Virus record (IMG/VR): IMGVR_UViG_2778261425_000003
Direction: 5' to 3' (one strand)
Length of the DNA stretch: 47,028 nt
Source of the DNA: a virus
Lineage: Duplodnaviria > Heunggongvirae > Uroviricota > Caudoviricetes
The position numbers and the translations under genes are program-made. Shown here piece after piece: positions 1,010 through 30,314 of this stretch. Each line of letters starts with the position of its first letter. Within the stretch, counting starts at the first letter, position 1. The notes beneath the pieces were generated by a model. It made no database searches and was not told where the DNA came from. It saw only the letters and a list, made by a program, of their open reading frames with translations.

Positions 1010-1249
1010 ATGACCCAATCCGTGTTGCTGCCACCGGGGCCTTTCACCCGGAGACAAGCGCAAGCGGTCACTACCACGTACAGCAATATCACACTCGAAG
1101 ACGACCAGGGCAGTCACTTCCGTCTGGTGGTTCGTGATACTGAAGGCCGGATGGTCTGGCGGGCATGGAACTTTGAGCCGGATGCCGGTGAAGGTCTTAA
1201 CCGCTATATCCGCACCTCAGGCATCCGTACAGACACGGCCACCCGCTGA
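1010..1249 (+). CDS. DUF905-family small protein (YkfF-like)
   Basis: Internal ATG at 1010 with AGGA RBS; 79-aa product [20 protein letters not shown]... typical of CP4 islands. Confidence 0.6.
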
Positions 1250-1346
1250 TCGCGAAGCATTTACCCGCATTCACCTCCCCGAACACACTTTATATCCCCA
1301 TACGCCAGCCATCGCCGCTGGCGTTTTTATTGACGGAGACATACCC

Positions 1347-1805
1347 ATGACAACACAGACGCAGCACGACCTCGCACCCGCTAACCAACCCGAATTTGAA
1401 CTGACCGTCACGCCGGTCCCCGATGAACAGCGTATCGATTTCTGGCCACAGTACTTTGGCGCTATCCCGCAGTGGCTACTCCTGGAGCCGCATATCTTCG
1501 CCTGGATGGACCGCTTCTGTGAGGGCTACAGCGGTGGTATCTGGTCGTTCTACACCCTCAGCAATGGCGGCGCATTTATGTCCCCCGAGCCTGACAACGA
1601 TGAGACATGGCGTCTGTTTAACTGCCTGAACGGTAACGATGCCCAAATGAGTGCAGAAGCAGCAGGTATTGCTGTCTGCCTGATTGCGTATAGCCACCAT
1701 GCCTGCCGTACAGAATGTGACGCGATGACCGCACACTATTACCGCCTGCGGGAGTATGCCATGCAACATCCAGAGGCTCACGCCATTCTGCGTATTATCG
1801 ACTGA
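1347..1805 (+). CDS. antirestriction protein, KlcA/ArdB family (YafX/YfjX-like)
   Basis: ATG at 1347 with GGAGA RBS; 152 aa; recalled family of CP4 island antirestriction proteins. Confidence 0.7.
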   Translation: MTTQTQHDLAPANQPEFELTVTPVPDEQRIDFWPQYFGAIPQWLLLEPHIFAWMDRFCEGYSGGIWSFYTLSNGGAFMSPEPDNDETWRLFNCLNGNDAQMSAEAAGIAVCLIAYSHHACRTECDAMTAHYYRLREYAMQHPEAHAILRIID

Positions 1806-4141: not shown

Positions 4142-4885
4142 TCAGATTCCCTGGTGAGTAAGAATTTTACTTTCTGAACTCCTCTGAGAGTATTGACTTG
4201 GAGAAACACCAAAATAACGTCTAAATACATAAGTAAAGTATGAGACACTGGCATAACCACAGACCTTAGCTACTTTACTAATAGGATAACAACGAGTGCT
4301 GAGTAAATATTCAGCCATTTGCATCCTCTCATCAAGTATGATCTTACTGAATGATATCCCCTCTTCTTTCAATTTCCTCTTTAGTAAACTTTCGCTGAGA
4401 TATAATCTTGATGATATATCCTTAAGACGCCATGGTGCAGATAAATCCGTATGAATAATCGTTTTAACTTTAGCCCCTGTGCTTTTCAAACATCCAAACA
4501 GAAATACTCCAAATTGTTTTTCAGAAGAAAATGCAGAGAGACATGTAAAAGCAATAGACTCATCAAAAATTTCTATGTATTCAGCACAGTGATTAGCCCA
4601 ACTAATTAATCCTTTAATTAAACTGAAGTTAGCAAAGTTTATTTTTAAATAAGATGGATATTCCCTACAATCAGAAATATCCCTTAAGTTATTAGCTTTC
4701 AAATAGCGACTAATAAACTCAGCGCCAAAATCCGCCACTATCACTCTTTCAGGATATGTCAGGAAAAAATCTCTAGAGCTAGAGTCGACAAGTACAGATG
4801 AACCTCTCTCCAGAAACACACTTTCTTTTCCGAAATAAATATCAAAGGACTCCAAAATCAATATAACTGAACATGTAGTTGCCAT
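4142..4885 (-). CDS. AraC/XylS-family transcriptional regulator (YdeO/AppY/GadX-like), low-GC cargo gene
   Basis: C-terminal double HTH (..SESLLKRKLKEEGISFSKIILDERMQMAEYLL...CGYASVSYFTYVFRRYFGVSP); ATG 4885 with GGTGG RBS, in-frame ATG also at 4894. Confidence 0.75.
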   Translation of the reverse strand: MATTCSVILILESFDIYFGKESVFLERGSSVLVDSSSRDFFLTYPERVIVADFGAEFISRYLKANNLRDISDCREYPSYLKINFANFSLIKGLISWANHCAEYIEIFDESIAFTCLSAFSSEKQFGVFLFGCLKSTGAKVKTIIHTDLSAPWRLKDISSRLYLSESLLKRKLKEEGISFSKIILDERMQMAEYLLSTRCYPISKVAKVCGYASVSYFTYVFRRYFGVSPSQYSQRSSESKILTHQGI

Positions 4886-5469
4886 ATCATCCACCCAATT
4901 TAACTGAAACCAGGATGAAGTATATGCATATAAAGTTCACTTTGCCAAACTTCAGTATAAAAAACCACATAAAAAATAGGGTGTGATAAAAAATACCGTA
5001 ACAATAAAGCAAAGGATTATAAATTCCGTTACAGTTACAAATGATACTCAAGAAACAATTTCTTAGGAAAAACTTATTTACAGCCAATAAGTAAGACACT
5101 TATATGATATCAAGTTTTCATAAGGCATAACTAGGCTAAATAGCTGCGCCTAATACCGCTACACTTTTGCCAGCCCATGTTTGCCTCCGGGTATTGACCC
5201 CTTCTTTACGCAACTTCAGTTCCCACCACCAACTTTGCGGCAGCTTTGTAGGATCAATGTCTAAAAGAATAATGGTGACCGATAAGAAAACGACTGAATA
5301 ACTGCAGATTTTCGCTCAAAACCTTCCTGTCAGATCCATAGCGAATCAAGTGCTGAATGTCACAGTATCGAACAGAAAACAGTGACGATCTAACCCTTCA
5401 AGAATATTCTACGATTGTTCTGTTTAGGAAAAGCAAGGCGGGAAGTCGGGAGATAAGTCATTGATAAAG

Positions 5470-5615: not shown

Positions 5616-6485
<870 letters not shown>

Positions 6486-6542: not shown

Positions 6543-7097
6543 TCATTTATCTCCGACCGGAAACTTCTTATACAGTGTCGATATACCAACATCATAGATG
6601 ATCGCCACCTTCTGGCGAGGAACGCCTGATGCAATTAATCGCCCGGCCTGCGCCCATTGTTCTGGTGTAAGTTTGGGACGACGTCCACCAATTCGTCCCT
6701 GTGCGCGAGCAGCCTCCAGTCCAGCTTTTGTTCGTTCAACAATCAGCTCTCGTTCCATTTCAGCCAGGGCCCCCATCACATGAAAGAAAAAACGCCCCAT
6801 CGGTGTGCTGGTATCAATTGAATCCGTCAGACTACGAAAGTTGATGCCTCGTTCGCGCAACTCCTCCACCAACACGACAAGATGCCGCATACTACGCCCC
6901 AGCCGATCCAGCTTCCAGACAACCAGAGTGTCACCTGCCGATAATGTCCTGAGCAGTTTTTTCAGTCCCGGCCTTTCGGACTTTGTGCCGCTTATCTTAT
7001 CTTCAAAAATCAGCTCGCATCCTGCACAGTTCAGCGCATTACGTTGTAGATCTGTGTTCTGGTCATTTGTTGACACACGTACATAGCCAATAAGCAT
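6543..7097 (-). CDS. pin: serine DNA invertase, Pin/Gin/Hin family
   Basis: 184 aa MLIGYVRVSTNDQNTDLQ...; catalytic Ser in YVRVSTNDQ, C-terminal HTH; GGGAG RBS before ATG 7097. Confidence 0.9.
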   Translation of the reverse strand: MLIGYVRVSTNDQNTDLQRNALNCAGCELIFEDKISGTKSERPGLKKLLRTLSAGDTLVVWKLDRLGRSMRHLVVLVEELRERGINFRSLTDSIDTSTPMGRFFFHVMGALAEMERELIVERTKAGLEAARAQGRIGGRRPKLTPEQWAQAGRLIASGVPRQKVAIIYDVGISTLYKKFPVGDK

Positions 7098-7123
7098 GGT
7101 AGATCTCCCTGACAAAAGCAGGA

Positions 7124-7516
7124 ATGATGCCATTTGCTCGTTATTTATGTATTTTTATAAACGTTGGTTTGGGAGAAGCGGCTAAAAGGAATGTAGGGAC
7201 AGGGGCGAATCAGATACCTGATATGGGTAGCTTCACGCTTTCTGTTTCAGGTACTGGATATCAAAAATTACCATCAGGTTTTATTCTTCAGTGGGGCTCA
7301 ATCGGCGCACCAGGCATTGCACAGGATGTAGTAACCCATTTCCCGATTGCATTTCCAAACAGATGTCTGCGTGTTTTGGTCTCACAAGACTACACACCAG
7401 ATAGCGGGGCTGTTGGTTATATTGCCTGTGCAGGTTTTAGTCCCGACCCGGTTAAATTTATATCCAGAGCCAGTACTCCTGGCCTCGGCGCTTCATTTTT
7501 AGCGTTAGGCTGTTAA
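7124..7516 (+). CDS. alternative tail-fibre C-terminal segment (Sv'), promoterless in this orientation
   Basis: Open frame running from the left crossover site; no own start context; would fuse to the constant N-terminus after inversion. Confidence 0.45.
7153..7178. repeat. gix/pix-like invertase crossover site (left)
   Basis: Reverse complement TTCTCCCAAACCAACGTTTATAAAAA matches the inverted copy at 9029-9054 over 14 contiguous nt plus a partial right half. Confidence 0.7.
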
Positions 7517-7537: not shown

Positions 7538-7978
7538 ATGAATTACATATATTCCGCGACTACAAACTCTTTCTATCCGCTGGAGATGAAAGAGGATTAC
7601 ACTCAAGCTGACTCATGGCCAGATGATGCTGTTGAAGTTGATGAGCAAGTGTATATTGAGTTTTCCGGATTACCGCCGAAAGGAAAAATCCGTATCGCTG
7701 GAGAAAATGGTTTTCCTGCATGGTCTGAAATTCCACCACCAACACATGAGGAACAGATTGCTGCAGCCGAACTGGAAAAGCAGCAACTGATTAATCAGGC
7801 CAACGATTATATGAACAGTAAACAATGGCCTGGTAAAGCGGCTATTGGTCGTCTGAAAGGTGAGGAACTGGCGCAATATAATTTGTGGCTGGATTATCTG
7901 GACGCACTGGAACTGGTTGATACCTCCAGTGCTCCAGATATTGAATGGCCTACGCCTCCGGCAGTTCAGGCCAGATGA
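7538..7978 (+). CDS. tail fibre assembly protein (U'-type), alternative orientation
   Basis: 146 aa MNYIYSATTNSFYPLEMKEDY...; conserved C-terminus DYLDALELVDTSSAPDIEWPTPP shared with the opposite-strand paralogue. Confidence 0.75.
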   Translation: MNYIYSATTNSFYPLEMKEDYTQADSWPDDAVEVDEQVYIEFSGLPPKGKIRIAGENGFPAWSEIPPPTHEEQIAAAELEKQQLINQANDYMNSKQWPGKAAIGRLKGEELAQYNLWLDYLDALELVDTSSAPDIEWPTPPAVQAR

Positions 7979-8552
7979 CATCCGGCGCGGTGCTGGTATC
8001 TGTTGCCGTCACCGCGTCAATGTAATCCAGCACGGCGTTAAGTCGGGTTGTTTCTGCCTGCGTCAACTTCCGTCCGGCCTGTAATTTCAGCTGAATCAGA
8101 CTAATGGAAACCATTGCTGCATCAATCAGTGACTGGCGCTGTGCTTCTGCCGCTTCTACTGCGGCGCTATGCTGTGCCTCAGTATCCGTCACCCATTTCT
8201 CACCATCCCATTTATCATATGGCGTTAACGGGGCGATAGTGGTTGTATTTTCAGGGTAATCACCCGGAGCTGTGATTTCTTTGGCGTCTCCCGTTTCGGT
8301 GTTATAGACGATTTCACCGCGATGGTCTGACACATATTCCCATGATTTTAAATCCACAGAACGGCAAATTGTATAACCAGCTTTATGTGTAACTGGTGCA
8401 TCTAAACAAGAACATGCTGGGATACCGACGCCAACCGCAAGATATTCAGTTGATGTGGAAATATATTCCCGCGTTTCACCATCATAGTTATAAACGGTAA
8501 TATCCCCTGCCTTTGTAGCAACAAGTCCACTATTTAATATTGCTTTATCCAT
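7950..8552 (-). CDS. tail fibre assembly protein (U-type), currently expressed orientation
   Basis: 200 aa; C-terminus LDYIDAVTATDTSTAPDVIWPELPEA; directly downstream of the tail-fibre gene. Confidence 0.75.
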   Translation of the reverse strand: MDKAILNSGLVATKAGDITVYNYDGETREYISTSTEYLAVGVGIPACSCLDAPVTHKAGYTICRSVDLKSWEYVSDHRGEIVYNTETGDAKEITAPGDYPENTTTIAPLTPYDKWDGEKWVTDTEAQHSAAVEAAEAQRQSLIDAAMVSISLIQLKLQAGRKLTQAETTRLNAVLDYIDAVTATDTSTAPDVIWPELPEA

Positions 8553-11928: not shown

Positions 11929-13007
11929 CAGAACGGGTCCTCCTGTACTCTGGCTTTTTTCTTTTTCCGCGCGCCGGGGGCTTCGGGTTCAGGCAGATAA
12001 GCATCAGACGGGCCGACACGGATTTCCGTCAGGGTGCCGTTCTGGTCCTGAGTAAACGTGACTTCCGAAACAAGCAGTTCGGTATTGTCGAAACCACAGA
12101 CCGGATCGAAGACAATCACCCGCTGGTTGGGCTGCCACAGCGTACCGTTACCCTGTCGCCAGCCCTGCACCACATAGGTGGTTTCATCCGTCCGCGCCGC
12201 CCGTTGTCGGGCTTCAAAGTCCGCACGGGCAATACAACCTGCCCCCGTAGCCTGCCCTGTCTGCCTGATATACATCGGACGGTAACGGGCAATAAATGCG
12301 TCCTCTGTGCGGGCCCGCAGCGCGGTGGTGGTGGCCTCACCGAAATCATCGTCGTTTCCGGCACGCTGCCCCGCCACCTGGTAAACAGAAAATCGCTCCC
12401 GGATACTCTTCTCCGTATCGCAGGAAAGGATGTTTTCCCCGAGTACCAGCGCGGTATGTGCCCGCGTTGAGCCAATACCGCCAATCACCAGCCTGCCGTG
12501 CGGGTCGTCATAAGCCAGCGCCTGCTGCTGACCGAGTATTTTGTTAATCACCTCGATCACCGTTTCACCGTGATCAGGCTGGACATCAGGAATAACACCC
12601 GACGGCGCACCGCTGTTCACCACCTCAATGCCGAAGGGCGCAGCAAGCGCCTGCGCAATCTGTACCAGTGATCGTCCGTTAAACTGTGTCGGTTCGGCTG
12701 CACAATCAATCAGGTCAGCGGTCAGACTGCGTCCGGCAATACCGGTGCTGACCGAACGGGCATCGTAACGAACGGGCGTCGCCTCCACCCAGCCGGTGAT
12801 CACCAGCTCATCACCAATCAGCACCTCCACTTTTGAACCGTTTTTAATGCGCGGCTGAAGCGTGGTAATACCCTCATCACCCGGCCACTGGCGGGTGATC
12901 TCCACACTGAAATCCCGCGCCAGCCGTTCAATACCGGCACCGATGCGCACCGATGTCCAGCCATTCCACTCCCGGCCATTTACCCGTAGCGTGACATTGT
13001 CGTTCAT
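11928..13007 (-). CDS. Mu P-like (gp44) baseplate hub/tail protein
   Basis: 359 aa; follows the DNA circulation gene as in Mu. Confidence 0.6.
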   Translation of the reverse strand: MNDNVTLRVNGREWNGWTSVRIGAGIERLARDFSVEITRQWPGDEGITTLQPRIKNGSKVEVLIGDELVITGWVEATPVRYDARSVSTGIAGRSLTADLIDCAAEPTQFNGRSLVQIAQALAAPFGIEVVNSGAPSGVIPDVQPDHGETVIEVINKILGQQQALAYDDPHGRLVIGGIGSTRAHTALVLGENILSCDTEKSIRERFSVYQVAGQRAGNDDDFGEATTTALRARTEDAFIARYRPMYIRQTGQATGAGCIARADFEARQRAARTDETTYVVQGWRQGNGTLWQPNQRVIVFDPVCGFDNTELLVSEVTFTQDQNGTLTEIRVGPSDAYLPEPEAPGARKKKKARVQEDPF

Positions 13008-14338
13008 TGCACTGGCACCTTCAGAGGGATCACCGGCACAAAGCCGGGATGCGTAATGGCATTACGCCGGATAATGTCCGCGTCACGCGCCGCGTTATCA
13101 AACCAGGTCGCCGCCAGCACCAGCGCGGGTAAAACCTCATCCGGTGTGCGCTGAATGATCCGTGCAGACTGTTCAAGGCGCGTGTTGATATCCGCATTCA
13201 GATCTGCTTTCACCCGGCGCAGCGCCAGAAACAGCGCATCGCTGGTTGTACGGGACAACTCCTTATCAATTGCCGTATTCAGTGTGTCGCGAATGTCAGT
13301 CAGTTCTTCCCACGTCGGCAGGTCAACCGTGTTTTTCACCGCCGGTGCATTGTTCAGTGCCGGATGCGTGACGGAAGGCCAGCCAGTGCTCTGCGCGGGT
13401 GTTGTTGCCTGCCCCACTGTGGCATTCTGCATCACCGCGGAAGTTGTTGGCGCAGGCAATCGGGTGACGGCATACGCCGCTTCGCTGATTGCGGTCGTAC
13501 GAAGGGTGCTGGCAACCACGTTACGCTGCTGCGTCGCCGTGGCGGTGGTTTTACTGTCCGTTTTCCAGACGCCGCGCGGTTGCAGATCGCTGCCGAGGCT
13601 GACACCGGAAAGCGTTTTGATCATGGTGACCAGGTCGCTGGCGTTACCATAAAGGCGTTTCCCGGTACGCCACATTTTCTGCACCTGCTCAACGAAATTT
13701 TTGCCTGACGATGGCGGCGGCAGAAGTACCGAGATATCCCCCTGCAACAGCCTGGCGGCGTCCGATACGGCAGAATCCACCACTTTCATCGCATCAGAAA
13801 CATACCCCAGCATTATGCTGGCATTACCGATAACGTCGTTCTGCACGAAATCCGCCACACCATCGATACTGAAACCGCTGAAGCTGTCACTGATGCAGTT
13901 ATCCAGTGCAGAACAGGATGACATCAGCGTCTGCGCCGTCGCCGCACCTGATGTGGGGTAAGAGAGTTCTCCTGCTTCGACAAACTTCAGGTCAAAGCGG
14001 ACAATACGCCCTTCACTTTTCGATGTGCTGACCCGAACTTCCCCGTCAACACAGACTTTCAGCTCACCGTATGTCGGATGGACAAGCGTGCCGGGACCGG
14101 GTTTATTCAGCGCGTCAATCAGGCGATCGCGCTGGTCAAAGCAGTCATCTCCCACCACATAAGCCGTGATGGACGGGCGAAAAGTGATTTTCCCCAGGTC
14201 TTCGGTATAGGGTTTGTCGCGGTTCGGGTATTCATGTGTTTCCACACGGCGACCGGTTCCCGCACTTTCTTCTTCAACCTTAAACGGCACACCTCGAAAT
14301 GACGCATCCTGAAGCCTGTCTTTCCACGTCATATACAC
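13004..14338 (-). CDS. DNA circulation protein (Mu N-like, gp43)
   Basis: 444 aa; downstream of the tape measure gene. Confidence 0.65.
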   Translation of the reverse strand: MYMTWKDRLQDASFRGVPFKVEEESAGTGRRVETHEYPNRDKPYTEDLGKITFRPSITAYVVGDDCFDQRDRLIDALNKPGPGTLVHPTYGELKVCVDGEVRVSTSKSEGRIVRFDLKFVEAGELSYPTSGAATAQTLMSSCSALDNCISDSFSGFSIDGVADFVQNDVIGNASIMLGYVSDAMKVVDSAVSDAARLLQGDISVLLPPPSSGKNFVEQVQKMWRTGKRLYGNASDLVTMIKTLSGVSLGSDLQPRGVWKTDSKTTATATQQRNVVASTLRTTAISEAAYAVTRLPAPTTSAVMQNATVGQATTPAQSTGWPSVTHPALNNAPAVKNTVDLPTWEELTDIRDTLNTAIDKELSRTTSDALFLALRRVKADLNADINTRLEQSARIIQRTPDEVLPALVLAATWFDNAARDADIIRRNAITHPGFVPVIPLKVPVQ

Positions 14339-14341
14339 TCC

Positions 14342-14378
14342 GAAAATAAAAAAGCCACCTATTAGAAGGTGGCCTTGT
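14342..14378 (-). terminator. rho-independent terminator of the tail-operon moron
   Basis: On the minus strand: hairpin AAGGCCACC/GGTGGCCTT (14352-14376) followed by TTTTTTATTTT. Confidence 0.7.
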
Positions 14379-14393
14379 AATGAATTTTATTAA

Positions 14394-14924
14394 TTAGCGA
14401 GTCAGAAACAACGAATCTTTATACTTTTGCTGTTGTTCATTTAAATACTTAGCTGTTTCATCGCTGGCAAATGGAAATATTACCGTATTTTTAGGCATGG
14501 TAATTTCTTTTTTGTCCAGCGTCAAAGTAAACATAGGAACATACTGAGCAGAGTAACGCACCGCAGAAACGAGCTCTAGTTTAGACTCTTCAATAACACT
14601 CAAATTATCCAGGCTAACTTTCTCTTCATCTTTTTTCTTTGACGCATTTAAAGTTTTTATTACTTTATTTAATTTCTCCTGAAAATCCTCCTTAAAGTTT
14701 TCAGGATTGCCGTCGACAATAAGAATCTGTTCACCCTGATTATCTGGAAAAATAATCTTTGCACTTATCAATTTATTTTCTTTATAAACATCACCAAGTT
14801 TTATGGCTCCTCCAGATAACTGAATAATATGTTCATCTTTAAAGGAGATGTTGCCAGAGATTATGAGAGATGAAAAAATAGCCGCTACTCCAAGAATTAC
14901 ACTTGCTGTGATATAGCCTTTCAT
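14394..14924 (-). CDS. moron: hypothetical membrane-anchored or exported protein, very low GC
   Basis: 176 aa, N-terminal hydrophobic segment ITASVILGVAAIFSSLIISG, Lys/Glu-rich; inserted between the tape measure and DNA circulation genes with its own promoter-like element and terminator. Confidence 0.7.
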   Translation of the reverse strand: MKGYITASVILGVAAIFSSLIISGNISFKDEHIIQLSGGAIKLGDVYKENKLISAKIIFPDNQGEQILIVDGNPENFKEDFQEKLNKVIKTLNASKKKDEEKVSLDNLSVIEESKLELVSAVRYSAQYVPMFTLTLDKKEITMPKNTVIFPFASDETAKYLNEQQQKYKDSLFLTR

Positions 14925-14949
14925 TTTTCGCCTATTAACATTTTTCTAA

Positions 14950-14977
14950 ATGTGCATTAATTCTATCACTCTATTTA
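14950..14977 (-). promoter_or_regulatory. putative sigma70 promoter for the moron (TTGTAA, 16-nt spacer, TAGAAT)
   Basis: Minus-strand -35 at 14977-14972 and -10 at 14955-14950, about 25 nt upstream of ATG 14924. Confidence 0.45.
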
Positions 14978-15015
14978 TGACTTACAACCAGCAATACATG
15001 TGAGGGGAATCCTGG

Positions 15016-16848
15016 CTACCAAAATCGGGTATAGCCAACATCGTGATTTATATCAATGCCACTGGAGCGTGTTTCCGTAACCCGCATACCTGGTGGCATA
15101 TTTATAAATGATACTTTGATCTCACCATCAACTTTTGGCGCGGTAGCTTTATTAATCATGAAGGGATTCGGGCCTGTGGCACCGGAGGCGTTGTTTGCCT
15201 GAGCCGGATCCACCGCCGGATAAGGAGTGTATCCCCGTGCCGGTATTCCCGTCCCATAAGCATCATAAGCACCCGCGCCCCACTGCGCAGAGTTAATGGC
15301 ATCGACCGTGTCACCGGAACTGTCGGTAAACCACTCAATAATTGGCTTCAGCTTGTCCCACATATCCTGAAACCACTTAACAACCGGCCCCCAGTTATTG
15401 ATCACCATCCCCAGCGGCGACCAGGCAAAAACTTTCTTAAGGAGTTCCCAGCCAGCCTCAAAATAAGGACCAATGGTTTCCCAGAGCTTCTTGAAATAAG
15501 GTCCGACAACATCCCAGTTAGTGATAATTAATCCCGCAGCCAGGGCTATCGCCGTCGCAATCATGCCAATCGGCGTCATCGACATGATCCTGCTGACAAT
15601 GCTGATGGCACCGCCCACGCCCATCAATCCCAGTTTCAGAATCGCAAGACCGGCAGCAAGCCCGACGACGCCGCGAATAACCCGGGGATTTTCATCCGCA
15701 AACTTCGTGAATTTTTCCCCCAACTCCCCCAGCCATTGCGTGATATTTTTAGCGTCACCAGAAAATGCGCCGCCAATAGCTGCAAGACCGTTAGTTGCGG
15801 TCCCCGTCATTGCCTCCCACAGGTTGGACAGCGTACCAAGCTGTGCCTGAACACGTTTATTCAGGCTGGCCTGTTTATTCATCTTCTGCTGGATCTGATC
15901 GTAACCATCCTTTCCTTTATCGATCAGAGCATTGACCACCTGAAGGGTTTCGGCATCATCACCAAATATTGCCTTAAGTACACCGGTTCGCTTAACGTCG
16001 GTCAATTTTCGCAGCTTTGCCAGTTGCTTAAACATGTTATCAAGACCGCCAAAACTCCCTTTGCCGTCAGTAAAATCGAGCTGTACCCCGAGTTTCTGGC
16101 GGGCCATAACTTTATTAACGTCCCTGATTTTCTTAACGCTTAATCCGGACTGGATAACTTTTCGCAGGGCATTACCTGCCGACTCCCCGTTCATCCCCAT
16201 CTGATCCATCATGACGCTGATGGGGGCAAGGCTCTGTGCAGCCTGAAGACCGTCCTTGTTCACCATCTTCAGAACAGAACTGGTTTTAGTGAAGAAGGAC
16301 AACATGTTGGTATCGTCAACGCCCAGATAAAACGCCTTCTGGATAGTGTCGAACAGCCCCATCATGTCTTCTGACGCCGTTCCGGTAGCATCCTGCATCT
16401 TTGCGGCAAACTCGGCAGCCGCTTCCGGTGTTTTTTTCAGTTGTACCGCAAGATAAGCTGTCGCTTTACCCACACCGCCAAGAATGTTTTCTGCCGGGAT
16501 CCCCTGACGCACCAGCATCTGCATCATGTTCTGAAAATCAGCCGTTGTACCGGGTAGCTGGTTACCCAGACCAATAGCCAGTTTATTGATGTCCTGAAAG
16601 CTCTTTCCGACCTCACCGTTCGCATCCATCATGGCAACTTTCAGCCCGGTGGCGGCGTTTTCCTGATCGGCATAAGATTTCAGGGAAAGCGTCAGACCCG
16701 CTGCCAGTCCGCCACCAAGCGCCAGCCCACCCTGTGACGCTTCTTCCGCCTGGCGTTTAAATCCCCGGATTTTCTTTTGCATTTTCGACAGCGCGGGAGA
16801 AAGCCTGTCGACACCGGTGATCAACGCCTTAAGCTCAAATTCAGCCAT
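15016..16848 (-). CDS. tail tape measure protein
   Basis: 610 aa, Ala/Gly-rich with hydrophobic central segments; downstream of the chaperone frameshift pair. Confidence 0.8.
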   Translation of the reverse strand: MAEFELKALITGVDRLSPALSKMQKKIRGFKRQAEEASQGGLALGGGLAAGLTLSLKSYADQENAATGLKVAMMDANGEVGKSFQDINKLAIGLGNQLPGTTADFQNMMQMLVRQGIPAENILGGVGKATAYLAVQLKKTPEAAAEFAAKMQDATGTASEDMMGLFDTIQKAFYLGVDDTNMLSFFTKTSSVLKMVNKDGLQAAQSLAPISVMMDQMGMNGESAGNALRKVIQSGLSVKKIRDVNKVMARQKLGVQLDFTDGKGSFGGLDNMFKQLAKLRKLTDVKRTGVLKAIFGDDAETLQVVNALIDKGKDGYDQIQQKMNKQASLNKRVQAQLGTLSNLWEAMTGTATNGLAAIGGAFSGDAKNITQWLGELGEKFTKFADENPRVIRGVVGLAAGLAILKLGLMGVGGAISIVSRIMSMTPIGMIATAIALAAGLIITNWDVVGPYFKKLWETIGPYFEAGWELLKKVFAWSPLGMVINNWGPVVKWFQDMWDKLKPIIEWFTDSSGDTVDAINSAQWGAGAYDAYGTGIPARGYTPYPAVDPAQANNASGATGPNPFMINKATAPKVDGEIKVSFINMPPGMRVTETRSSGIDINHDVGYTRFW

Positions 16849-27385: not shown

Positions 27386-27895
27386 TTAACCAAATACAAT
27401 GAATGTTCCAAAAGATGCTAATGATATATTTATCAGAGAATCCATACGAGCCTTAATTTCTGGCGTATCCTCGACCTCAGTACGCCATTGATTGACTGCC
27501 TCAATCATATCTCGACAAAACACATCTATTTGCAACTGAAGTTTGCCATTTAAGTGATTTAAATGCACTTGGCAATTTGGCCTAGGTGGTGGTGTAAAAT
27601 TAAACTGCATCATTCTTTTCCTGTTCTCTGGATCCTGTCCAGCATGTAAACAAGAACAACGATACAGCCAAAAATCATCCGCATAAAATCGACACTGTTC
27701 ATGTGTACCGGATGTATATTTATTTTCAAGATAACGAGAAACCCAATCTTTATACCATTTCCCTGTTTCACCCTTACCTATTTTGGGACGTTCAACGCTC
27801 CTGCAAATATCAGGCATAGCAAGAGCCATAAACAATGCCGCTAACCAATTCTCACTTTCAATTGAAGATTCAATTGATTTTATAAACCTTTCCAT
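27386..27895 (-). CDS. hypothetical Cys/His-rich protein, low-GC cargo between lysis and packaging modules
   Basis: 169-aa ORF, GC visibly lower than flanks; CRFYADDFWLYRCSCLHAG and CQVHLNHL suggest possible metal binding. Confidence 0.6.
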   Translation of the reverse strand: MERFIKSIESSIESENWLAALFMALAMPDICRSVERPKIGKGETGKWYKDWVSRYLENKYTSGTHEQCRFYADDFWLYRCSCLHAGQDPENRKRMMQFNFTPPPRPNCQVHLNHLNGKLQLQIDVFCRDMIEAVNQWRTEVEDTPEIKARMDSLINISLASFGTFIVFG

Positions 27896-27961: not shown

Positions 27962-28213
27962 TTATTCATTTTGATATCCTATTTTTAGAATATCCTTTTT
28001 ATCTCTATTGCATTGCGCTAATGCAGATAACAAACTCGCATTCAGTTCCAGGCTAGCACCATATGTCAGTGGACTAGGTACAACTGGAATCGGTGTTTCA
28101 GAAGTCAGGCTGGCTGGCAGTGGTACCGCCGGAGTGTTCACGTAAACTGTCCGCGTACTTCCGCAACCGGTCAGCAGCGGCAGCAGGCACAGGACGTGAA
28201 GCACAATCATCAT
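27962..28213 (-). CDS. Rz1: o-spanin (Rz1-type outer-membrane lipoprotein), embedded in the Rz gene
   Basis: Lipobox LLTGC after a hydrophobic leader, Pro-rich; out-of-frame overlap with Rz. Confidence 0.7.
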   Translation of the reverse strand: MMIVLHVLCLLPLLTGCGSTRTVYVNTPAVPLPASLTSETPIPVVPSPLTYGASLELNASLLSALAQCNRDKKDILKIGYQNE

Positions 28214-28490
28214 CCGCAACAGCCACTTTGATATCTTCCTGGGTTCTCTGTGACTCCAGTGCAATCTGCTGTTTTGCATGCTGGTTAGCCTCTATAACTG
28301 TATTGATGATTTGCAGTGATTGCAGAACGTTACGGGTAATGGCAGTTGCTGATTCAGCATTTCGTATAGCCTCATCAACACGCTCCTTTTCGTGCAGATA
28401 TTTGCTGTAGTAATGCCCGGCAGACCAGATGAAGGAACCAATGACGGTAACAAAGAAGGCAACAATAACCAGCTTATATCTCAGCTTCAT
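28098..28490 (-). CDS. Rz: i-spanin (Rz)
   Basis: 130 aa, N-terminal TM then coiled coil; follows endolysin. Confidence 0.8.
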   Translation of the reverse strand: MKLRYKLVIVAFFVTVIGSFIWSAGHYYSKYLHEKERVDEAIRNAESATAITRNVLQSLQIINTVIEANQHAKQQIALESQRTQEDIKVAVADDDCASRPVPAAAADRLRKYADSLREHSGGTTASQPDF

Positions 28491-29690: not shown

Positions 29691-30314
29691 CTAACGTGTG
29701 ACCGCATTCAAAATGTTGTCTGCGATTGACTCTTCTTTGTGGCATTGCACCACCAGAGCGTCATACAGCGGCTTAACAGTGCGTGACCAGGTGGGTTGAG
29801 TAAGATTTGGGATTAGCATCGTTACAGCGCGATATGCGGCGCTTGCTGGCATCCTTGAATAGCCGACGCCTTTGCATCTTCCGCATTCTTTCTCAACAAC
29901 TCTCCCCCACTGCTCTGTTTTTGCTATATCAACCGCACGGCCTGTACCGTGACAATCTCTGCATCTTGCGCCCGGCGTCGCGGCACTACGGCAATAATCC
30001 GCATAAGCGAATGTTGCAAGCACTTGCAGTACCTTTGCCTTAGTATTTCCTTCAAGCTTTGCCACACCACGGTATTTCCCCGATACCTTGTGTGCAAATT
30101 GCATCAGATAGTTGATAGCCTTTTGTTTGTCGTTCTGGCTGAGTTCGTGCTTACCGCAGAATGCAGCCATTCCGAATCCGGCTTGTGATTGCGCCATCCC
30201 CATAGCAGCCATCACATCAGTACCAGAAAGAGAGTCAGAAGCCGTGGCCCGTGGTGAGTCACTCATCATCGGGCTTTTTGGCGAATGAAATTTAGCCACG
30301 CTTTCGAGTCTCAT
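29691..30314 (-). CDS. Q: late antiterminator Q (lambda-type)
   Basis: 207 aa [27 protein letters not shown]..., zinc-finger cysteines CRDCHGTG...CGRCKG. Confidence 0.9.

Follow-up and report, generated by a model that had tools for sequence, protein, structure and literature searches.

Phages encode membrane-anchored superinfection-exclusion proteins that act at the envelope, such as lactococcal Sie2009 and T4 Sp, in which an N-terminal hydrophobic helix precedes a soluble domain. Hotspots of defence and accessory genes were reportedly described by Rousset et al. in 2022 for P2-like phages and P4-like satellites. The first moron to be described, gp15 of HK97, adjoins the tape-measure gene and encodes an inner-membrane protein which the prophage expresses and which prevents genome entry; the block depends on the tail of the incoming phage, and P22 SieA and Cor are also mentioned among superinfection-exclusion proteins (PMC3594210, a review of work that includes Juhala et al. 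2000 and Cumby et al. 2012). Here we analyse a stretch of 47,028 nucleotides (nt) of tailed-virus DNA (IMG/VR record IMGVR_UViG_2778261425_000003), referred to as the window, in which an open reading frame (ORF) of 176 amino acids (aa), called X in the following, lies between the tape-measure and baseplate hub genes of a Mu-type tail. We read X as the cargo of a moron cassette in a polymorphic slot of an SfV/e14-like E. coli prophage, expressed in the lysogen and encoding an inner-membrane protein that would exclude incoming phages. The probability of this reading as a whole is put at about 45%.

Comparison with related tail modules shows the insert to be optional and exchangeable. In the genomes deposited for SfV, SfI, SfII and vB_EcoM-689R6 the flanking genes are about 95% identical to those of the window and are separated by 60 base pairs (bp), leaving the slot empty. 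SfV, SfI and SfII are plaque-forming phages, and because they are infectious without X, the gene is dispensable for a working tail. Among 5426 complete E. coli genomes, the tape-measure/hub junction was detected in 1096 and X in 174. X is the commonest cargo of the slot, as judged from the counts of 84 for a secreted 164-aa protein, 58 for an OB-fold protein, 54 for a lipoprotein and 24 for a bacterial PH-domain protein (bPH), and about two thirds of the E. coli modules carry none of these five cargoes. Homologous tail modules thus do not always contain the gene, which is missing from the three Sf phages and present in 174 of about 1096 E. coli genomes with the junction. These modules without the insert, together with unrelated cargo at the same place in others, support the proposal of a moron inserted into the tail operon that had been made in a sequence-only reading of the window. 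In the restatement of PMC3594210 morons are recognised by their absence from collinear relatives, their deviant G+C content (GC), a promoter and a terminator of their own, and expression from the repressed prophage. Absence from collinear relatives, deviant GC and a terminator were found here, along with a promoter-like site that matches the consensus at chance level. The slot also shows a mark of a cargo hotspot of the P2/P4 type, namely unrelated cargoes at a fixed position between conserved flanks.

These comparisons contradict the explanation that X is a structural or assembly component of the tail, for example a membrane-associated factor that helps to assemble the tape measure and the hub. 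In several genera the gene stands at this same place between tape measure and hub, and a distant relative lies within the baseplate cluster of another myovirus, both of which would suit such a component. A tail component would, however, be conserved in all functional Mu-type modules, and X is not: infectious SfV, SfI and SfII lack it with flanks of about 95% nucleotide identity, some two thirds of the E. coli modules do without any of the five cargoes, and unrelated cargo takes its place in other modules. X furthermore has a membrane anchor and a foreign base composition, and members of its family occur outside phages. A role in tail structure or assembly is therefore highly improbable.

The position of X between the tape-measure and DNA circulation genes, as first read from the sequence, was confirmed by ORF calling and translation (14394..14924, minus strand, ATG start, 176 aa). 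The slot is anchored by two conserved genes on the same strand, the tape-measure protein gene upstream (15016..16848, 610 aa; PF10145 and PHROG tape-measure families) and the Mu gpN-like DNA-circulation or baseplate hub gene downstream (13004..14332, 442 aa; PF07157, PHROG 184 baseplate hub). A gap of 91 nt separates the tape-measure stop codon from X, and 61 nt lie between X and the start of the hub gene. The latter starts with the ATG at 14332, after a GGAG at 14341..14338, and the same start is given in the PGAP annotation of a 99.9% identical prophage.

The slot was found in six states with identical breakpoints, empty or occupied by X, by a bPH_1 protein, by an OB-fold protein, by a lipoprotein or by a secreted protein. 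The four cargoes other than X, found by sampling other modules, are mutually unrelated and stand at exactly the same position. Three of them are encoded on the same strand, the 125-aa bPH protein (PF08000), the 225-aa lipoprotein with an LLGGC lipobox and the 164-aa secreted protein with a cleavable-looking signal peptide, and one on the opposite strand, the 148-aa membrane-anchored OB-fold protein (PF12869, tRNA_anti-like). A signal peptide, lipobox or membrane anchor is present in four of the five occupied alleles. Between alleles, whose flanks are 94-98% identical, homology breaks at 15016-15022 around the tape-measure stop codon and resumes at 14335-14359 in the 3' arm and T-run of the terminator. 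From these breakpoints and from GC we set the exchangeable cassette, which comprises a promoter-like site, the ORF and the terminator stem, at about 14357..15015 (minus strand).

The OB-fold cargo was located at 1044..1490 (plus strand) of the module of E. coli HCP17S3_I4 (L003) and occurs in E. coli 042 as well; it matches phrog_8545, labelled 'superinfection exclusion Sie-like', with an E-value of 1.5e-49. The bPH cargo of Edwardsiella phage EPP-1 (L113 897..1274) shows about 90% protein identity to that of E. coli Cn5 (L002 997..1374), and the flanks show about 71% DNA identity, which suggests a recent horizontal transfer of the bPH cargo alone. A linkage of the X allele to the type of tape measure was ruled out, as different cargoes stand beside tape-measure 3' ends that are 94-97% identical, and X is 53% identical whether the neighbouring tape-measure proteins are 36% or 76% identical. 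In E. coli EC21Z-014 an IS5-family transposase lies within the tape-measure/X/hub interval (NZ_CP101274.1 870919..873791), which there measures 2873 bp compared with 2001 bp. E. coli MS 69-1 (NZ_CP146675.1 and the 64,057-bp NZ_CP146678.1) has the X-bearing tail module on the chromosome and also on a separate 64-kb record; the latter may represent the prophage in excised or episomal form, or else a phage-plasmid.

The base composition of the cassette is foreign to the neighbouring genes. In windows of 300 bp, GC across the ORF is 0.31-0.33, compared with 0.51-0.62 in the flanking tail genes, and the ORF as a whole has a GC of 0.34 against about 0.53 in the late region, which bears out the low GC first noted. 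The 659-bp cassette (GC 0.337, z = -3.4 against the late region) is among the three deepest GC troughs of the 47-kb window. Low GC is also found in homologues of X, with 0.35-0.39 in Leclercia, 0.33 against 0.53 in Raoultella and 0.38 against 0.54 in Lelliottia.

Hydropathy analysis of X revealed a single hydrophobic segment at residues 5-23 (Kyte-Doolittle mean over 19 residues 2.23), encoded by 14856..14912 (minus strand) and overlapping a predicted helix at residues 2-21, and a body in which K, E and D make up 29% of the residues. A candidate for the expected N-terminal membrane anchor or signal sequence, followed by a Lys/Glu-rich body, was thereby recovered. An AlphaFold2 model computed from a 47-sequence alignment (predicted local distance difference test, pLDDT, 90.8) shows helix 2-21 and a short hairpin, followed by an antiparallel sheet of four strands against which two long helices pack, in the order beta-beta-alpha-beta-beta-alpha. 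Foldseek against a viral structure library gave one significant match, a 'Lipoprotein' of Pseudomonas phage ventosus (A0A2H4P829; E 5e-6, TM-score 0.56/0.66, 16% identity), and because of this match the same domain seems to occur both helix-anchored and lipid-anchored. Among PDB entries, sequence searches with two profiles gave noise only, and no relative was detected by fold. The hydrophobic N-terminus is preceded by K or R throughout the 47 family members, which favours an N-in, C-out orientation with a periplasmic domain. In the predicted topology the domain of X therefore probably faces the periplasm. At the potential signal-peptidase site the family shows no conservation of small residues, which favours an uncleaved anchor. 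From the model, X is predicted to be a single-pass envelope protein with one N-terminal membrane helix and an alpha/beta domain.

X matches PHROG 5485 ('unknown function') from end to end (E 7.7e-108, residues 1-176 on profile positions 1-176 of 176), and the distant relatives P0108, P0110 and P0071 match the same PHROG. Searches of Pfam, NCBIfam and PADLOC that covered X, 47 family members and the four alternative cargoes found no match for X. A tblastn search of 50,697 deposited phage genomes with X and with the 29% identical relative P0108 gave no match, and the family was seen in prophages and metagenomic viral contigs only; a scan of genome contigs with the narrow X alignment confirmed no relative. 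An exhaustive profile search yielded 77 cluster representatives, nearly all of them 165-200 aa long and with the same hydrophobic N-terminus. Profile-profile comparison showed no relationship of the X family to the secreted 164-aa cargo, to the lipoprotein cargo or to a 180-aa neighbour in Pseudomonas islands.

The slot also holds homologues of 51-59% identity in Leclercia (L007, L011) and Citrobacter (L108), in a second E. coli allele (L105) and in two contigs, a metagenomic one (L114) and one from IMG/VR (L093). The tube and hub proteins that flank these homologues are 69-90% identical, and X thus evolves faster than its structural neighbours. The ratio of non-synonymous to synonymous substitution rates (dN/dS) is 0.09 in the one pair of alleles with unsaturated synonymous change; between the other diverged alleles it is uninformative because synonymous change is saturated. 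Across 75 near-identical copies of X, 16 of the variable sites are synonymous and 10 are non-synonymous, and there is one indel. These patterns of substitution indicate that X is a real protein-coding gene under purifying selection.

More distant relatives were found in other surroundings. A 29% identical relative in Raoultella (L095) lies inside an unrelated baseplate cluster of the E217/Pam3 type; it is AT-rich and is followed by a hairpin terminator and then by the Shine-Dalgarno sequence of the next gene. Directly upstream of it, a 113-aa gene with a signal-peptide-like N-terminus and no Pfam match (L095 5632..5973) may be a second cargo in that cluster. Relatives of 23-27% identity lie in integrase/resolvase islands of Pseudomonas and Halopseudomonas, beside an Mrr-type nuclease or an AAA_15 ATPase. 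In Lelliottia amnigena (L014 5806..6568, GCA_053585915.1) a lone intact homologue of X stands between icd, the e14 attachment locus, and a GATase gene. All that is left of the prophage besides this gene is the final 41 codons of the tape measure, the intergenic region and the terminator, and the locus aligns to the slot of the Leclercia prophage with 74% DNA identity over 763 bp. By this alignment the Lelliottia locus is a minimal prophage remnant consisting of just the cassette, and its X is possibly a domesticated gene.

A candidate promoter for X, predicted by consensus scan, lies at 14960..14987 (minus strand). It consists of TTGTAA at 14987..14982, a 16-nt spacer and TAGAAT at 14965..14960 with the TG of an extended -10 (TGnTAGAAT), and the -10 hexamer ends 35 nt upstream of the ATG. 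The plausible sigma-70 promoter of the sequence-only reading is present in so far as these hexamers and their spacing were found, but the -35 hexamer lies 10 nt beyond the end that had been given to the insert. Pairs of -35 and -10 elements follow a conserved ATGTATTG motif at the homologous position in several diverged cassettes. They score 9-11 of 12 in the IMG/VR contig L093 (TTGTCA-16-TATAAT, 11/12), in the lone Lelliottia copy L014 (TTGTCA-17-GAAAAT) and in the metagenomic L114 (TTGGCT-17-CATAAT), and in Leclercia L007 the -10 element is degenerate. Within the 28-bp promoter core none of the 28 columns varies among the 75 near-identical copies compared with 5 of 28 just upstream, a difference that is not significant as about 1.5 would be expected. 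Because the promoter-like site is kept in diverged homologues and in the lone Lelliottia copy, we infer expression from the repressed prophage. Autonomous transcription of X is plausible from these sequence comparisons, and that the promoter is active in the lysogen has slightly better than even odds. An Rfam scan of the cassette found nothing, and a 6-nt inverted repeat in the 5' untranslated region (14938..14953) was discarded, being no better than many others in AT-rich DNA.

The X gene is followed by an intrinsic terminator (14341..14376, minus strand), identified by an inverted-repeat scan and by its fold energy. Its 10-bp stem (14376..14367 and 14360..14351) encloses a 6-nt loop and runs into TTTTTTATTTT, a T-run at 14350..14341. 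With -15.6 kcal/mol it is the strongest inverted repeat of the region. The strong terminator expected downstream of the gene is hence there, but it is not specific to the insert. A GC-rich hairpin with a T-run stands directly before the GGAG of the hub gene in the four same-strand occupied alleles and also in the empty slot, where CCCACTCCGGTGGG is followed by TTTTTT (-18.7 kcal/mol for the 60-nt region), and in the GenBank record of SfII a 'putative rho-independent terminator' was annotated at the junction by the depositors. The exception is the opposite-strand OB-fold allele, which has no hairpin with T-run at this place and whose sole hairpin lies at the tape-measure end of the slot, without a T-run. 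The stem sequences differ between alleles, and each cassette may therefore have brought its own terminator. Since the empty slot has an equivalent one, finding a terminator at this junction does not set the insert apart as a moron. Across these alleles the internal terminator between the tape-measure and hub genes is a standing feature of this tail operon, and because it stands even in the empty slot, Q-dependent read-through would be needed with or without cargo. A lambdoid Q antiterminator gene is present in the same prophage (29691..30314, minus strand; PF03589, E 1.3e-57), which makes passage by Q-modified polymerase plausible, in line with the view that late transcription would need Q to pass the terminator.

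Taken together, the proposed sequence of events is the following. Recombination in the conserved genes on either side would swap the cassette between related tail modules. In the lysogen X would be transcribed from its own sigma-70 promoter and the hairpin terminator would halt this transcript ahead of the baseplate genes, and during lytic growth Q-modified RNA polymerase would pass the terminator. X in the inner membrane would then hinder incoming phages at the envelope, a form of superinfection exclusion at the step of genome entry. Superinfection exclusion is favoured among possible functions because the products of four of the five occupied alleles are exported or anchored, because the OB-fold cargo belongs to a 'Sie-like' PHROG, because HK97 gp15 provides a precedent, and because relatives of X occur in contexts that resemble defence islands. 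By these analogies an anti-phage role of X is a tentative proposal whose chances fall somewhat short of even.

Several observations weigh against this reading. Concerning expression, the promoter match of 9/12 is at the level of chance in AT-rich DNA (5 sites per 2.5 kb, with 3.6 +/- 2.3 expected). The upstream layout differs in L011, L105 and L108, which have a palindrome instead of the hexamer pair and another 9/12 match overlapping the tape-measure stop codon. The Raoultella relative has just 27 nt upstream and no recognisable promoter, and X is co-oriented with the late operon, so that it may be expressed late only. Concerning function, the 'Sie-like' label of phrog_8545 is a family annotation and not a tested function. 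X shows no homology to a characterised exclusion or defence family in PADLOC, Pfam or NCBIfam, or in the PDB by sequence or fold. Finally, a second related tail module is about as frequent in carriers of X (10 of 60, five of them clonal) as it is overall (about 12%), and as the second module is not depleted there is no sign that like phages are excluded. The palindrome of L011, L105 and L108 (CGCTAT, 6-8 nt, ATAGCG) is conserved among the three at about 25-45 nt past the tape-measure stop codon and may act as an operator or form an RNA hairpin.

The points on expression would agree with X being a late-expressed accessory of the lytic cycle, transcribed solely within the Q-dependent late operon, whose product would act during lytic growth, for example by keeping superinfecting or progeny phages from injecting into a cell already infected or lysing, or by modifying the envelope, without lysogenic conversion. 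X has the orientation of the late operon and begins 91 nt past the tape-measure stop codon, its promoter match is at chance level, the gap upstream of the Raoultella gene is only 27 nt, Q is present, and the terminator of the junction stands without cargo and so need not be a moron's own. On the other hand, the lone Lelliottia copy is intact with neither a late operon nor Q nearby, and distant relatives reside in non-phage integrative islands that have no late operon. The OB-fold cargo is encoded on the opposite strand and cannot be transcribed by the late operon. X is also AT-rich, and several of its homologues keep a promoter-like element in the corresponding place. Purely late expression is thus unlikely.

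The points on function bear likewise on the possibility that X is a host-fitness or virulence factor, a prophage-expressed envelope protein which, like Bor and Lom of lambda, alters the surface, stress tolerance or host interaction. The moron anatomy fits this as it fits an exclusion protein, X is a predicted envelope protein without similarity to known defence proteins, the lone gene was kept in Lelliottia, and such roles are known for morons (PMC3594210). The carriers, however, come from humans, pigs, poultry, wastewater and sediment without a niche pattern. Relatives lie in islands of environmental Pseudomonas and Halopseudomonas by nuclease and ATPase genes that are typical of defence islands, and one sister allele is annotated as 'Sie-like'. 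We consider a host-fitness role unlikely.

A wider version of the exclusion reading takes the tape-measure/hub junction as a dedicated hotspot of envelope-acting anti-phage genes, with the X family as a new membrane-anchored exclusion class of unsolved fold. This proposal is doubtful. PADLOC detected none of the five cargoes, and one of them belongs to the PHROG labelled 'Sie-like'. Such a hotspot would perhaps extend to other contractile-tail prophages, and X would have spread across myovirus modules and islands, to be domesticated by a host occasionally, as in Lelliottia. If this holds true, X would found a new exclusion family.

The surrounding genes show the kind of element to which the cassette belongs. 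Around X lies a Mu-type contractile-tail set with sheath, tube, chaperone, gpP-like hub, Gp45, Gp46 and baseplate J. The prophage in the window has lambdoid regulation and an SfV-type tail, encodes CI, an N-like protein, Q, a holin and a lysis cassette, and is integrated next to a tRNA-Thr(CGT) gene. A tyrosine integrase gene (44407..45570, plus strand) abuts this tRNA gene (45585..45660, minus strand) and a gene of the aldehyde dehydrogenase family, and the region 44407..47028 is presumably the attachment end of the prophage. In strain SOI121 a 99.9% identical tail module is found at the icd/e14 locus instead, so that the same tail module travels with different integration modules.

Low GC was also seen elsewhere in the window. 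A 169-aa ORF at 27386..27895 (minus strand; GC 0.34, no Pfam match, PHROG 18591 of unknown function) sits between the Rz1-like LysC gene (27962..28279) and the HNH and terminase genes, a classic accessory position downstream of the lysis cassette, and is a candidate for a second low-GC moron. Within the window GC dips lowest (0.316) at 4483..5141, over a gene for an AraC-family regulator (4142..4894, minus strand), near a GIY-YIG protein gene (5661..6485, plus strand) and a serine invertase gene (6543..7133, minus strand). A pair of opposed tail-fibre-assembly genes (7538..7978, plus strand; 7950..8552, minus strand) suggests that a tail-fibre segment can invert. In the early region lie genes for an N-like antiterminator (38696..39079), an Nmad5 nucleotide-modification-associated protein (39081..39764) and, within a low-GC stretch (0.37), an HNH-AP2 endonuclease (40441..40968).

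The kind of element described here is already known, as its anatomy is that of a textbook moron. In the literature searched, nothing was found on a multi-allelic slot at the SfV/e14-like junction, on the X family, or on its spread with a Lelliottia remnant. The slot is present in about one fifth of complete E. coli genomes, where it is easily scanned, and has at least six alleles that encode mostly exported proteins of unknown function. The cargo found most often, a conserved protein of about 175 aa that has neither a Pfam family nor a solved structural relative, moves among tail modules and islands of Enterobacteriaceae and Pseudomonas-type bacteria. If confirmed, the slot would provide a compact library, assembled by nature, of genes that may act in exclusion or surface modification, and its isogenic 'empty' versions would serve as controls. 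A prophage gene that blocks the entry of other phages would, if this is true of X, help to explain differences in susceptibility from strain to strain, which matter for phage therapy and typing.

Among the known systems, HK97 gp15 and X are alike in being optional inserts of deviant GC beside the tape-measure gene of a lambdoid-regulated tail operon, with a layout of promoter (in X a candidate one), gene and terminator and with an N-terminal membrane segment in the product, which for X is predicted. They differ in that gp15 is a small YebO-family protein encoded upstream of the tape-measure gene of a siphovirus, whereas X has 176 aa, about 150 of them in a predicted alpha/beta domain, is encoded downstream of the tape-measure gene of a Mu-type myovirus tail and has no detectable homologue in Pfam or PADLOC. 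The slot resembles the hotspots of P2 and P4 as a fixed site between core genes at which unrelated cargoes interchange among otherwise near-identical elements, but it holds single small genes that are mostly exported and have no PADLOC defence match. Like proteins of the Sie2009 and T4 Sp type, X is phage-encoded, is predicted to combine a single hydrophobic helix at the N-terminus with a soluble domain, and would act at the envelope. In sister prophages precisely the slot of X is taken by the Sie-like protein of PHROG 8545, which likewise has an anchor at its N-terminus, but its sequence and fold are unrelated to those of X and it is encoded on the opposite strand. The ventosus 'Lipoprotein' (A0A2H4P829) is, like X, a phage protein predicted to be tethered to the envelope; it is anchored by a lipid and X by a helix.

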